7,574 nt of DNA. Source: Escherichia coli (GTDB taxonomy: Bacteria > Pseudomonadota > Gammaproteobacteria > Enterobacterales > Enterobacteriaceae). The notes below the pieces were generated by a model. It made no database searches. It was given only the letters and a program-made list of their open reading frames with translations, and was not told the origin of the DNA. The stretch lies in assembly GCF_003334305.1 (NCBI RefSeq), contig NZ_QOWS01000046.1, one strand, 5' to 3'. How positions within the stretch are numbered: the stretch's first letter is position 1; each line of letters begins with the position of its first letter. Below are positions 78-4,103 of the stretch, one piece after another. The translations under genes were made by a program, and so were the position numbers.

Positions 78-112
78 GCATATAATGCAACATTTTGAAT
101 TAGCACGATTTT

Positions 113-147
<35 letters not shown>

Positions 148-170
148 TTTTGTGCACGAGGCTGGCTTTA

Positions 171-994
171 TCACTGAGTCAGCCCAACAAAGCGACCCGC
201 CTTGATATAAATCCCAGGCTTCAGGTGCCCAACATACTGTAACTGCGTTTCTGGCTTAAACGCAGAGACATCACCAATACGCATATGCATCAGATCGGCA
301 GGGCTAATCCAGCCCGATTGCGCCAGTGTAAGTGGATGCCCGGCTTTGGCAAAGGCATCCGTGACAAATTCCGAACAAAACCACGACTTTTTGTCTCCTT
401 CGCCCACACTGCTTAACTGCGCTTTCGCCAGGCCGCTGACGCACTTTGGCGAAAATCCTCGGAGAACGGATTCAGTGAGCACATCTGGCGAGTCACCATA
501 AAGGGAATAAATTCGACAATGCCGCGATAGTTATAACCGCTATCTTTGATTTTATTGGCAAACGCGGTGATATCTGTGGCTTGTTGCGGGGTAAGATCCG
601 GGACTCGTAAGACGAAAAGCTTATCACTATGCTTCATCGCTTTTTTAAGGGAAACAATCTGGACGCCAGCGCCTGTCGCTTCTGCAACGTTATTATCACC
701 CAGAAAGATTGCAACGTGACTCACAGAGGAAGTGCTGAAGACGCGGATTCCAAATGAGGTTACCCCAAGGCTTGAGGAGAACAGCAAATCGCCGGGTTTG
801 AGATCAGGTGCCGTTATTTCTTTTATTGATTGTTCGGTGAAAGAGCTTTGATGCTGGAATTTGACAGCCCATGTTTTTGCCTCGGCATCTACTGCTGTGG
901 CTGATGGGTCTGGCTGGCTGATATCAACGGTACAAGCCGAAAGTAAAAGAAAGCTGGGGAGAAACAGGCGGCAGTACGCCTTTGGTTTATCCAT
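171..994 (-). pseudogene. yaeF: yaeF-like lipoprotein (permuted NlpC/P60-type putative peptidase), interrupted by a frameshift in this sequence
   Basis: Two overlapping minus-strand ORFs in different frames (413..1048 and 171..482). The upstream one starts MDKPKAYCRLFLPSFLLLSAC (signal peptide plus lipobox LSAC) from ATG at 992-994 and stops at TAA 413-415. The downstream one carries the Cys motif WFCSEFV and runs to the stop at 171-173. His-containing and Cys-containing segments fall in separate frames. Span 171..994 is 824 nt, not a multiple of 3. Confidence 0.8.
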
Positions 995-1010
995 TTTATA
1001 CAATCCATGT

Positions 1011-1038
1011 AAAAAAAGGGCCCTGAAATTCAGGACCC
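1011..1038 (-). terminator. Rho-independent terminator of proS
   Basis: Read on the minus strand: GGGUCCUGA-AUU-UCAGGGCCC, a 9-bp stem with one G-U pair and a 3-nt loop, followed directly by U7 (plus-strand a7 at 1011-1017). It begins about 10 nt downstream of the proS stop. Confidence 0.8.
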
Positions 1039-1047
1039 TTTCTGGCA

Positions 1048-2766
1048 TCAGCCTTTAATCTGTTTCACCAGATATTCGACGATGTCACCAGTCTTAATTA
1101 ACTGTTTCTCGCCGTTGCGACGATATTTATATTCGATATCGTCGTTGTCGAGGTTACGGTCGCCCAGCACAATAGTGTGCGGAATACCGATCAGTTCCAT
1201 ATCAGCAAACATCACGCCCGGACGCTCTTTGCGGTCATCCAGCAGCACTTCGATACCTTGTGCACGCAGTTCGCTGTACAGTTTCTCAGCAAGCTCTTGT
1301 ACGCGGAAGGATTTGTGCATGTTCATCGGCAGAATCGCCACCTGGAACGGCGCGATAGCGTCAGGCCATACGATGCCTCGTTCGTCGTAGTTCTGCTCAA
1401 TCGCCGCAGCTACCACACGCGTTACCCCGATACCGTAGCAACCCATCGTCAGGATTTGGTTACGGCCATCTTCACCCTGTACGGAGGCTTTCAGTGCTTC
1501 GGAGTACTTGGTACCCAGCTGGAAGATGTGACCAACTTCGATACCACGTTTGATCAGCAGCGTACCCTGGCCATCCGGGCTTGGATCGCCAGCCACCACG
1601 TTACGGATATCTGCAACTTCCGGGGTAGCGACATCGCGATCCCAGTTGATGCCGAAGTAGTGTTTACCATCGATGTTAGCACCAGCAGCGAAATCACTCA
1701 TCGCCGCAACGGTACGGTCAATCACCACCGGAATCGGCATGTTTACCGGACCCAGTGAACCCGGACCGGCTTTAACCACGGCACGAATTTCTTCTTCGGT
1801 CGCGAAAGTCAGCGGGCTTGCAACCTGCGGCAGTTTTTCTGCTTTAACTTCGTTCAGCTCGTGATCACCGCGCACCAGCAGCGCAACCAGCGGGAAGCTA
1901 CTGCCTTCAACCGCTTTAACCAGCAGAGTCTTAACCGTTTTCTCAATCGGCAGATTGAACTGTTCAACCAGTTCCGCGATGGTTTTCGCGTTCGGCGTAT
2001 CAACCAGCGTCATTTCCTGGGTAGCAGCAGCGCGCGGTTCTTTCGGCGCGATAGCTTCTGCCAGTTCAATGTTCGCTGCATAGTCAGAGGTGTCGGAGAA
2101 GACCACATCGTCTTCACCGCTCTGCGCCAGCACCTGGAATTCGTGAGAGGCGCTGCCGCCGATAGAACCGGTGTCGGCTTGTACGGCGCGGAAATCCAGC
2201 CCCATGCGGCTGAAGATTTTGCTGTAGGCCGCATACATTGCATCGTAGGTTTCCTGCAGGGATTCCTGAGAAGTATGGAAAGAGTAAGCATCTTTCATCA
2301 GGAATTCGCGGGAACGCATGACGCCGAAACGCGGACGCACTTCGTCGCGGAACTTGGTCTGGATCTGATAGAAGTTCAGCGGCAGCTGTTTGTAAGAGCT
2401 AAGCTCGTTACGAATCAGGTCAGTGATAACTTCTTCATGAGTTGGGCCGAGTACGAACGGACGCTCGCCACGGTCAACAAAACGCAGCAGTTCCGGACCG
2501 TACTGTTCCCAACGACCACTCTCTTGCCACAAATCAGCTGGCTGAACCACCGGCATCGACACCTCGATCGCACCGGCGTTGTTCATCTCTTCACGCACGA
2601 TGTTTTCGACTTTTTTCAGAACGCGCACGCCGGTCGGCAGCCAGGTATATAACCCGGAGGCCAGCTTGCGGATCATCCCGGCGCGCAGCATCAGCTGATG
2701 GCTGATCACCTCGGCGTCGGCAGGTGTCTCCTTGAGAGTGGAGAGCAGGTATTGGCTAGTACGCAT
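1048..2766 (-). CDS. proS: Prolyl-tRNA synthetase (class II aaRS with INS editing domain), 572 aa
   Basis: The 590-aa ORF contains the recognisable ProS sequence starting [20 protein letters not shown] at an internal ATG (2764-2766), giving 572 aa. The 18 upstream in-frame codons are treated as non-coding leader. Confidence 0.96.
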
Positions 2767-2877
2767 GTTGTTACGGTTCCAGTTGGAAGGTAGAACAGGC
2801 TCAAGGCGAGCCTGGGACAAAAAAAAGTGATTTAGTTTACCAGTGCAAAAGAAATGTCAAAAGAGAAGGGCGTGAAT

Positions 2878-3585
2878 TTAACGCGGTTCCAGCGCAAAGA
2901 CTTCAAAACCTGCGTCGGTGACGCGCCAGCGAACGTTAAAATCATGTAGCCAGACGGCATAGGTTTTGCCCGTTTCCTCACCTTTACGATAGGCCGGGCG
3001 TGGGTCCTGCGCCAGTACTTCGCGGATAAACAGCGTTAACTGCGGATAACGCTTCTCCAGCGTCAAAAGCTGCTTTTCGACCTCTGCGGTAAAACTCACC
3101 GCCATCTCTGCCGCTGGCGCACTTTGCGCATAGCTGGCACTGGCATCGGGAAGCGATTCGGCAAAGGGGAGATACGGTTTGATATCCACTACCGGCGTAC
3201 CATCGACCAGATCCAGACTGCCGAGCTTCAGAATCACGCTGTCTTTATGGCAAACAACCTCTTTCAGCTCTACCAGCGACATACCAATTGGGTTAGGGCG
3301 GAAAGTAGAGCGTGTTGCGAAAACCCCCATTCTGGCGTTACCGCCGAGGCGCGGTGGACGCACAGTCGGACGCCAGCCGCCTTCCATCGTTTGATGAAAG
3401 ACGAAAAGGATCCATAAATGGCTGAACGCTTCCAGGCCGCGAACGGCGTCGGCCTGGTTGTAGGGAGCAATGAGATGCAGTTCGCCGTTGGCGCTTTTTA
3501 CCAGACCTGGCTGGCGCGGAACGGCGAATTTTTCTTTATAGGGCGAGCGAATAACGCCTATTTGCTCGAACTGGAAACTGCTCAT
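2878..3585 (-). CDS. trmO: tRNA (adenine37-N6)-methyltransferase TrmO (formerly YaeB/TsaA), 235 aa
   Basis: ORF translation MSSFQFEQIGVIRSPYKEKFAVPRQPGLVK... recognised as E. coli YaeB/TrmO with matching length. Its ATG overlaps the rcsF stop (ATGA). Confidence 0.94.
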   Translation of the reverse strand: MSSFQFEQIGVIRSPYKEKFAVPRQPGLVKSANGELHLIAPYNQADAVRGLEAFSHLWILFVFHQTMEGGWRPTVRPPRLGGNARMGVFATRSTFRPNPIGMSLVELKEVVCHKDSVILKLGSLDLVDGTPVVDIKPYLPFAESLPDASASYAQSAPAAEMAVSFTAEVEKQLLTLEKRYPQLTLFIREVLAQDPRPAYRKGEETGKTYAVWLHDFNVRWRVTDAGFEVFALEPR

Positions 3586-3986: not shown

Positions 3987-4048
3987 AGTATTTCCTCAAT
4001 GTATGATCAAAACGTCAATATTGAATCAGGAGCTTGTAAAAATGACAA

Positions 4049-4066
4049 GACGGGCAAGCGCCCGTC
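4049..4066 (-). terminator. Probable intrinsic terminator downstream of metQ (end of the metNIQ operon)
   Basis: Minus-strand hairpin GACGGGC-GCUU-GCCCGUC (7-bp GC-rich stem) followed by UUGUCAUUUUUA, about 38 nt after the metQ stop. The U-tract is interrupted, hence moderate confidence. Confidence 0.5.
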
Positions 4067-4103
4067 CTGAATGATATTACAAATTGTGGAAACAGCCTAA
4101 AAA

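Follow-up and report, generated by a model that had tools for sequence, protein, structure and literature searches.

Read-through of at least 5% occurs at 75% of termination sites in E. coli, and about 40% add genes to the transcript, as described for dapA-bamC and prs-dauA (Yan et al. 2018, PMC6131387). The proS-yaeF junction resembles these two pairs: a canonical hairpin with a U-tract separates a housekeeping gene from a co-directional downstream gene that lacks an evident promoter of its own. As proposed below, the downstream gene would also join the transcript only by read-through. In dapA-bamC this downstream gene is, like yaeF, a lipoprotein gene. However, read-through of the two known pairs has been measured and depends on growth conditions (11-40% and 46-91%, respectively), and an attenuator-like alternative structure is predicted for dapA-bamC (PMC6131387). 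For proS-yaeF, read-through is proposed, and no alternative structure is predicted. The proS-yaeF arrangement is an ordinary and known kind of operon architecture. Another point of comparison is the reporter series built on the lambda tR2 terminator, in which a terminating ribosome lowers termination efficiency when the stop codon lies closer than about 27-30 nt: efficiency drops below 10% when the stop is 5 bp away, lies at 0.12-0.8 for 17-18 bp and reaches about 0.9 once the distance exceeds 30 bp (Li et al. 2015, PMC4824070). The 9-nt gap of proS falls inside this range. However, tR2 is one phage terminator on a reporter plasmid, from which the proS terminator differs by its native chromosomal context and expression level. 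Since the tR2 effect is sequence-specific (0.12 versus 0.8 at 17-18 nt), its size at the proS terminator is not predictable.

The window (the whole stretch of E. coli DNA analysed, 7,574 nucleotides) carries both genes on the minus strand (Table 1). Read directly from the sequence, the minus-strand order of the junction is TGA-UGCCAGAAA-GGGUCCUGA-AUU-UCAGGGCCC-UUUUUUU-ACAUGGAUUGUAUAAA-AUG. The initial annotation had located the proS stop, the hairpin with its U7 and the yaeF ATG within 57 nt, and all of its coordinates are correct; the gap between the U-tract and the ATG, given there as about 16 nt, is exactly 16 nt (1010..995) and AU-rich. In the NCBI annotation, the proS end at window position 1048 corresponds to K-12 217057, and the yaeF start at 994, annotated both in K-12 and in a 100%-identical strain, to 217003. 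The proS open reading frame covers 1048..2820 (-), with TTG as the first in-frame start listed and the annotated ATG at 2766. A longer in-frame ATG for yaeF exists at 1048..1046 (211-aa ORF). It was rejected because translation from this codon would pass through the hairpin sequence and put 18 extra residues ahead of the lipoprotein signal peptide, which makes 994, the start used by NCBI, the sensible one.

Table 1. Features of the proS-yaeF region (window coordinates)
Feature	Position	Strand	Remarks
proS (proline--tRNA ligase) CDS	1048..2766	(-)	Stop TGA 1050..1048; ORF list, NCBI annotation of 100%-identical strain and K-12
Spacer UGCCAGAAA, 9 nt, proS stop to G-C stem	1039..1047	(-)	AGAAA able to pair with U-tract
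Terminator hairpin GGGUCCUGA-AUU-UCAGGGCCC	1018..1038	(-)	5' arm 1038..1030, loop 1029..1027, 3' arm 1026..1018
U7 tract	1011..1017	(-)	From sequence; T6 in many other E. coli strains
yaeF translation initiation region ACAUGGAUUGUAUAAA	995..1010	(-)	SD-like GGA 1006..1004; out-of-frame upstream AUG 1008..1006
yaeF start codon ATG	992..994	(-)	NCBI annotated start; yields lipoprotein signal peptide MDKPKAYCRLFLPSFLLLSAC
yaeF (YaeF-family permuted papain-like lipoprotein), pseudogene here	171..994	(-)	Annotated 'frameshifted' in identical strain
Weak sigma-70-like match TCGACA-N17-AAATAT inside proS	1123..1151	(-)	Score 7.2; upstream of hairpin
Candidate proS promoter TTGACA-N15-TAAACT	2834..2860	(-)	Score 13.2, best minus-strand PWM match in window; prediction only

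The hairpin between proS and yaeF is real and goes beyond what chance would produce. The 9-bp stem is GC-rich (7 G-C, 1 A-U and 1 G.U pairs) and closes a loop of 3 nt. It folds with -14.6 kcal/mol alone and -15.8 kcal/mol when the tail is included (z = -4.3; none of 200 shuffles folds equally well), while pairing of the upstream A-tract with the U-tract extends the fold to 14 pairs and -20.5 kcal/mol. A d'Aubenton-Carafa-type score equals +37.6, well within the terminator range. In an alignment of 14 loci from 7 genera, 97% of the cells are paired and 7 of the 10 pairs show compensatory changes. None of 500 shuffles matches the observed covariation score or percentage paired, one of 500 equals the number of pairs in which both partners are altered, and slid controls are 30-56% paired. 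The site combines sequence features of an intrinsic terminator: a stem-loop, a U7 directly 3' of the stem, a position downstream of a stop codon and a conserved structure. A simple terminator scan did not list it, but this is likely an artefact of the scanner, the AAA/UUU extension of the stem probably consuming the T-run, and does not count against the site. When 40-220 nt from upstream are included, the mean pair probability of the stem is 0.97 in every context tried and no mutually exclusive antiterminator is predicted upstream of the hairpin; the window contains no Rfam match. A regulated terminator of the attenuator or riboswitch type was rejected on these grounds.

The junction is shared well beyond this strain. 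Of 5,426 complete E. coli genomes, 5,424 carry its 90-mer, which is identical in K-12. proS and yaeF are adjacent and co-directional in all 15 loci compared (9 genera), and the order tsaA-proS-yaeF, convergent with nlpE, is found in Escherichia, Citrobacter, Klebsiella, Enterobacter, Intestinirhabdus, Dryocola, Tenebrionibacter, Franconibacter and Serratia. The gap measures 50-78 nt and consists of a GC hairpin, a T-run, an SD and the ATG in 13 of the 15 loci. The T-run is T6-8 in most of them and weaker in Dryocola and Tenebrionibacter; among E. coli strains it is polymorphic (T6/T7). The spacer between stop and stem measures 8-13 nt in Escherichia, Citrobacter, Klebsiella and Enterobacter. 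As judged from these comparisons of sequence, the layout tsaA-proS-hairpin-T run-SD-yaeF is conserved across Enterobacterales.

The initial annotation had argued that a yaeF promoter finds little room between the U-tract and the yaeF ATG, and indeed these 16 nt are too short for a conventional promoter and hold no promoter-like sequence. A promoter scanning tool returned no minus-strand site between 353 and 3100, and in our own sigma-70 PWM scan of the minus strand nothing places a start at 995-1012. The PWM was crude and sigma-70 alone was scored formally; motifs for sigma-E, sigma-54, sigma-28 and sigma-S were judged by eye over the last 200 nt of proS, again with nothing convincing. Promoter prediction in the 3' end of proS, the check recommended by the initial annotation, gave no convincing candidate in the last 450 nt. 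The best gene-strand sigma-70-like match within 450 nt upstream of yaeF is the weak one at 1151..1123. A promoter inside proS would in any case also need read-through, because it lies upstream of the hairpin. The initial annotation had listed read-through and a proS-internal promoter as separate routes to yaeF expression; the latter is not an alternative. Since no convincing promoter was found and any proS-internal promoter must pass the hairpin, read-through is the best explanation. The read-through transcripts likely start at the predicted promoter upstream of proS (Table 1).

Hairpin and U-tract thus probably constitute the Rho-independent terminator of proS, with the promoterless yaeF transcribed only by read-through as part of a conserved proS-yaeF unit. 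yaeF would be the promoter-distal gene of this unit, reached by those polymerases that pass the proS terminator. A ribosome terminating on proS could sit over the foot of the 5' arm at the time when RNA polymerase reaches the U-tract. As the stop codon is only 9 nt away, the ribosome may mask the stem base, which suggests that read-through is substantial and not rare. Against this, the sequence looks like that of a strong terminator (perfect U7, GC-rich stem base, A-tract) and taken alone predicts little read-through. The initial annotation had named very poor yaeF expression, behind a strong terminator, among the possibilities. The strength is a prediction from sequence, and poor expression as its consequence is not established, given the 9-nt gap between stop and stem, the absence of a listed Term-seq end and the Rho-dependent termination inside yaeF.

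Data obtained in K-12 with and without bicyclomycin show sense transcription that arrives in yaeF from the direction of proS (Adams et al. 2021, PMC7815308). Within yaeF, at 216647(-), they place a Rho termination region, for which counts in the upstream and downstream windows are 81 and 19 in untreated cells and 122 and 112 with bicyclomycin (PMC7815308); the numbers are low, each window spans 800 nt and RNA stability is left out of account. The count columns were checked against the formula of that paper. The upstream window is about half proS. Because of this, and because the counts are nearly equal when Rho is inhibited, a large share of polymerases appears to pass the hairpin. The region recalls Rho polarity in poorly translated genes, both by its location inside yaeF and by the C-rich, G-poor start of the mRNA (C/G 1.3-1.7 over the first 200 nt), although it is placed at the resolution of 800-nt windows from low counts and is not individually validated by Adams et al. 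2021 (PMC7815308). We infer that the Rho signal stems from read-through transcripts. Rho would then cut many of them short inside yaeF, and the net outcome would be a low yaeF expression set by proS transcription.

The Term-seq table of the same study, which is thresholded, contains the metQ terminator at 220052/3 and no minus-strand 3' end between 214116 and 219994 (PMC7815308); the missing 3' end at the proS terminator is weak evidence. Neither proS nor yaeF is mentioned in the SMRT-Cappable-seq supplements, and the Romero 2014 supplement has only REP-associated transcripts at nlpE-yaeF. A NsrR ChIP peak labelled 'c0233 / yaeF' in CFT073 is irrelevant here: c0233 is CFT073-specific and transposase-like, and its NsrR motifs are absent from the window.

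Read-through transcripts would present yaeF with an AU-rich, unstructured leader. The GGA is its only SD-like element (anti-SD duplex of -3.1 kcal/mol). The initial annotation had described it as weak, which holds in comparison with the AAGGA of other genera (-5.2 kcal/mol) but not with the SD of proS (-3.3 kcal/mol), than which it is no weaker. ACAUGGAUUGUAUAAA is identical in the Escherichia and Citrobacter loci, apart from one A fewer in locus L007, while the flanking codons vary. At the orthologous position other genera carry AAGG(A), followed by U in most, and Tenebrionibacter has AAGGC. The E. coli AUGGA is probably a degenerate SD derived from an ancestral AAGGA. The out-of-frame upstream ATG was rejected as a conserved uORF: its frame and length vary (6-codon ORF in L007), and it is lost in strain 33E and in the AAGGA genera.

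Several other explanations were weighed. The terminator might work efficiently in vivo and leave yaeF all but silent under ordinary conditions, with slight input from a weak or condition-specific proS-internal promoter, for example that at 1151..1123, leaking through the hairpin. This is rather unlikely. It agrees with the strength predicted from sequence features, and yaeF is often truncated in E. coli (many truncated protein clusters), which would fit weak selection on a barely expressed gene. Four of 14 loci (E. coli, Escherichia sp. E1V33, K. quasivariicola and Serratia) share the 1151..1123 match at an identical position. However, it is a poor match (3/6 in the -10) within conserved codons, and synonymous changes remove it in E. 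whittamii, the Citrobacter loci, K. huaxiensis and others. A silent yaeF is also difficult to reconcile with downstream counts nearly equal to upstream counts under Rho inhibition, and with the maintenance of an intact yaeF and initiation region across many genera.

Two further proposals reinterpret the conserved nucleotides around the GGA, and both are very improbable. A promoter could overlap the terminator, with TTCAGG (1027..1022), N16, GATTGT (1005..1000) and transcription beginning around the A of the ATG, so that the yaeF mRNA would be leaderless or nearly so and the conserved GGATTGTA would be a -10-like element instead of an SD. Such a match does exist and GGATTGTA is conserved in Escherichia, Citrobacter, K. 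huaxiensis and Enterobacter; TTCAGG is conserved as well, because it is part of the hairpin. Yet the score is only 3.2, a value reached at about 1 in 200 random positions, with 3/6 matches per hexamer. Moreover, GATTGT lies 4 to 7 nt from the ATG depending on the genus, and more distant genera keep AAGG(A) and not the hexamer, as expected of an SD. The other proposal takes the invariant spacer UACAUGGAUUGUA for the site of a CsrA-like regulator, which would bind GGA in the loop of a small hairpin and control yaeF translation on read-through transcripts. The CsrA SELEX consensus is RUACARGGAUGU, which UACAUGGAUUGUA resembles. UGGAU lies in a 5-nt loop of the minimum-energy fold, a second AUGGAU is located at the start codon, 14 nt downstream, and the spacer is invariant in Escherichia and Citrobacter save for the A missing in L007. 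However, the mini-hairpin is worth only -0.6 kcal/mol, and sequence rich in AU would give such flanking stems by chance (shuffle p = 0.53 for E. coli, 0.18 combined over 7 lineage groups). The second GGA is not conserved beyond E. coli (absent in E. whittamii, Citrobacter, Klebsiella and Enterobacter), and the literature searched contains no link between yaeF and CsrA. The SD-in-loop hairpin was rejected because of the shuffles and of the poor conservation of the second GGA.

In the alignment with K-12, yaeF of this strain lacks one base after window position 445, and the 90-mer carrying this frameshift is identical in 1,197 of 5,426 E. coli genomes. The initial annotation had suggested that a minor, pre-existing expression of the gene could be related to tolerance of the frameshift. 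This idea finds no support: K-12 (MC4100), with an intact yaeF, has the identical junction. O157:H7 and strain 83972, in which yaeF is likewise intact, show no other differences at the junction than a shorter T6 run and one G.U-preserving change. Other genera with an intact yaeF keep the same layout. The junction therefore does not distinguish the pseudogene allele.

Read-through of the proS terminator leaves the general picture unchanged, since pervasive terminator read-through is already known in E. coli. For annotation, this would mean placing yaeF at the distal end of a proS-yaeF transcription unit, behind an internal partial terminator, and not assigning it a promoter of its own. proS-yaeF also offers a clean natural case for the tuning of an intrinsic terminator by stop-codon proximity, because the hairpin, U-tract, 9-nt spacer and downstream frame are conserved and because intact and frameshift alleles are both common in E. 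coli. A more speculative possibility, which we regard as doubtful, is that the closeness of stop and stem (8-13 nt) has been selected: the terminating ribosome would gate the terminator, yaeF transcription would report how closely translation of proS keeps up with RNA polymerase and Rho inside yaeF would act as a second checkpoint. If true, the gene of an envelope lipoprotein would be under a promoter-free control in two steps that is conserved across Enterobacteriaceae.

On the minus strand, the proS stop codon is separated by UGCCAGAAA from a hairpin, which runs directly into a U7 tract, a short spacer and the yaeF start codon (see the table). The sequence and the hairpin fold thus agree with the close packing of these elements described in the initial annotation. 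With 994 as its start, as annotated, yaeF encodes a normal lipoprotein signal peptide that ends in LLSAC. A start at the longer in-frame ATG, 1048..1046, is not credible and would read through the hairpin. The hairpin alone folds at -14.6 kcal/mol (z-score -4.3; 0 of 200 shuffles fold equally well) and reaches +37.6 on a d'Aubenton-Carafa-type terminator score. It can be extended to 14 pairs by pairing with the upstream A-tract, which is probably why it is absent from the list of a simple terminator scan. The window is E. coli chromosome, with 100% identity to several sequenced strains across 100-1300; near the junction, K-12 coordinates equal window coordinates plus 216009. The REP element between nlpE and yaeF is single (GCCGGATAAGGCGTTTACGCCGCATCCGGC); K-12 is longer here by about 68 nt (REP16a/b).

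Gene order in the window and elements of the proS-yaeF junction (window coordinates)
Feature	Position	Strand	Basis or remark
nlpE, 3' end		plus	ORF list and NCBI annotation
REP element, one	100-160		between nlpE and yaeF
yaeF	171..994	minus	annotated as 'frameshifted' in this strain
yaeF AUG	994..992	minus	
Spacer ACAUGGAUUGUAUAAA	1010..995	minus	before yaeF AUG
U7 tract	1017..1011	minus	
Terminator hairpin GGGUCCUGA-AUU-UCAGGGCCC	1038..1018	minus	sequence and fold
proS stop (TGA)	1050..1048	minus	
proS	1048..2766	minus	
tsaA, rcsF, metQ, metI, metN		minus	beyond proS
gmhB		plus	last in gene order

The yaeF neighbourhoods of seven Escherichia and Citrobacter genomes were compared, together with nine further ones (Citrobacter braakii, two Klebsiella species, Enterobacter hormaechei, Intestinirhabdus, Serratia, Dryocola, Tenebrionibacter and Franconibacter). 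All those fetched have tsaA, proS and yaeF on the same strand and nlpE convergent. Of 15 loci analysed, 13 have a proS-yaeF gap of 50-78 nt, in which the order is GC-rich hairpin, T-run, short AU-rich spacer with a Shine-Dalgarno (SD) and ATG. The T-run is T6-8 in most loci and weaker in Dryocola and Tenebrionibacter. The hairpin varies in sequence among genera while its pairing is retained: an alignment of 14 sequences has 97% of its cells paired, and 7 of 10 pairs have changed on both sides. Of 500 shuffles, none matches its covariation score or percentage paired and one has at least as many pairs with changes on both sides; as a control, a shift of the partner by 1 to 3 columns lowers pairing to 30-56%. 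The junction 90-mer is present in 5,424 of 5,426 complete E. coli genomes. Variants inspected in this species carry T6 for T7, one G.U-preserving change or, in one strain, AGGGA for AUGGA.

The gap reaches about 200 nt in the loci from Intestinirhabdus (L014:2297-2500) and Serratia (L016:2300-2500). The former has the hairpin region twice, in near-identical copies, with an insert of roughly 150 nt between them, the latter a palindromic, highly structured element of roughly 130 nt inside the hairpin-like ACACCCUG...CAGGGUGUUUUG (gap fold -79.5 kcal/mol). Both inserts look like small mobile repeat elements with the terminator as target.

Nascent-RNA folds with 40-220 nt of upstream context contain the terminator stem every time (mean pair probability 0.97) and no predicted antiterminator alternative, and a comparison of the window with Rfam gives no match; any read-through is therefore either stochastic or caused by something external to the RNA. 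On three grounds this read-through would not be small. The first G-C pair of the stem follows the proS stop codon at a distance of 9 nt (8-13 nt in core genera). According to Li et al., the terminating ribosome blocks folding of the lambda tR2 hairpin: termination efficiency is below 10% with the stop codon 5 bp away and 0.12-0.8 at a distance of 17-18 bp, and only past 30 bp does it come to about 0.9 (PMC4824070). Moreover, the K-12 study of Adams et al. 2021 (PMC7815308) places a Rho termination region inside yaeF at 216647, minus strand (about 638 in the window), with counts in the 800-nt windows upstream/downstream of 81/19 untreated and 122/112 with bicyclomycin (column order verified against their Rho-score formula). 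About half of the upstream window is proS, and near-equal counts under Rho block would hardly be expected of an intrinsic terminator with high efficiency. A rough estimate from the bicyclomycin counts, which are small and ignore RNA stability, is 45-85% read-through. Finally, their curated Term-seq 3' ends include none on the minus strand from 214116 to 219994, with those of metQ at 220052/3 present, a weak point since the list is thresholded. The first 200 nt of the yaeF mRNA are C-rich and G-poor (C/G 1.3-1.7), a composition that fits Rho loading. Adams et al. 2021 also give a Rho termination region antisense to yaeF (K-12 216516, plus strand), and Cappable-seq has weak plus-strand starts at K-12 216563, 216613 and 216712 in yaeF and 217144 in proS.

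A sigma-70 scan of the window left the minus strand from 353 to 3100 without a site. A second scan used a crude position-weight matrix of hexamer frequencies. Its top minus-strand match, second in the window, is a candidate proS promoter (TTGACA-N15-TAAACT, 2860..2834, score 13.2). The leader behind this candidate carries a T8 run and a 7-bp hairpin (CAGGCUC-GCCUU-GAGCCUG); promoter and leader elements together lie within 2797-2860 (minus strand). In line with the little promoter room initially claimed, no match places a transcription start between 995 and 1012, and the best gene-strand match in the last 450 nt of proS and the gap is weak (TCGACA-N17-AAATAT, 1151..1123, score 7.2). Four of 14 loci have it in the same place, within conserved codons, and synonymous changes remove it elsewhere. 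Since all candidate promoters are upstream of the hairpin, a yaeF mRNA with its own ribosome binding site must cross the terminator. The sole exception would be a near-leaderless yaeF start from TTCAGG-N16-GATTGT, but the score of this match is a low 3.2 and its distance from the ATG varies among genera. That yaeF has no promoter of its own and depends on read-through is therefore the best-supported reading, and a reasonably likely one. By fold and score the sequence predicts the strong terminator of the initial annotation; the step from there to poor yaeF expression is not established.

Elsewhere in the window, at the metQ/rcsF junction, there is room for a promoter beside a terminator. A candidate rcsF promoter (TTGTCA-N17-TTCAAT, 4048..4020) overlaps the tail of the metQ terminator (GGACGGGCGCTTGCCCGTC and T-run, 4020-4075, minus strand), where strong Term-seq 3' ends map (K-12 220052/3). 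An NsrR site beside yaeF in CFT073 (227478-227553, outside the window; transposase-like c0233, strong ChIP-seq) was also considered; its motifs are absent from the window.

The 16 nt 5' of the yaeF ATG are invariant in all Escherichia and Citrobacter loci, except for one A fewer in one locus of this set (L007), while the proS and yaeF codons on either side vary. At this position the other genera carry ACAAGGAUUGUA, AAAGGAU or a similar sequence, so that the conserved core is an AAGGA SD. An A-to-U change common to Escherichia and Citrobacter weakens the yaeF SD (anti-SD duplex -3.1 vs -5.2 kcal/mol), in keeping with the weak GGA first noticed. However, the same measure gives -3.3 for proS, -2.1 for tsaA and +0.3 for metN, so that a weak SD alone need not mean poor translation in this neighbourhood. 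The AAGGA-to-ATGGA change also creates an out-of-frame AUG (1008..1006, minus strand) opening a 39-codon ORF that overlaps the yaeF start in this strain. There is no conservation of this ORF: it has 6 codons in L007, and strain 33E has lost the ATG. A CsrA-like site, with the SD within the loop of a conserved small hairpin, was demoted to a low-probability rival by a shuffle test: chance alone is enough to give such stems in AU-rich flanks (p = 0.53 in E. coli; combined p = 0.18 over seven lineage groups).

In this strain yaeF is a pseudogene with one base fewer than K-12 after position 445. Of 5,426 complete E. coli genomes, 1,197 share the deletion-bearing 90-mer (401-490) without a mismatch, and the frameshift is therefore a widespread lineage allele; together with the many truncated E. 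coli YaeF clusters in the protein collection, this indicates that yaeF loss is common in the species. Among strains with intact yaeF, K-12 MC4100 has a junction identical to that of the window, and in O157:H7 and 83972 the only differences are a T6 run and one G.U-preserving change; other genera with intact yaeF have the same layout. The layout of the junction is much older than the frameshift and does not set this allele apart. Given the identical junction beside an intact gene, the suggested link to tolerance of the frameshift remains speculation.

Read-through of intrinsic terminators is pervasive in E. coli, amounting to at least 5% at 75% of mapped termination sites; about 40% of sites add downstream genes in this way, and measured values are 11-40% for dapA-bamC and 46-91% for prs-dauA (PMC6131387). 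No paper discussing yaeF transcription was found in the literature searched, where yaeF occurs in the text of 18 papers and no listed title is on that subject. The proS-yaeF junction falls in the same class as the dapA-bamC and prs-dauA read-through terminators and is an ordinary, conserved instance of a known architecture.
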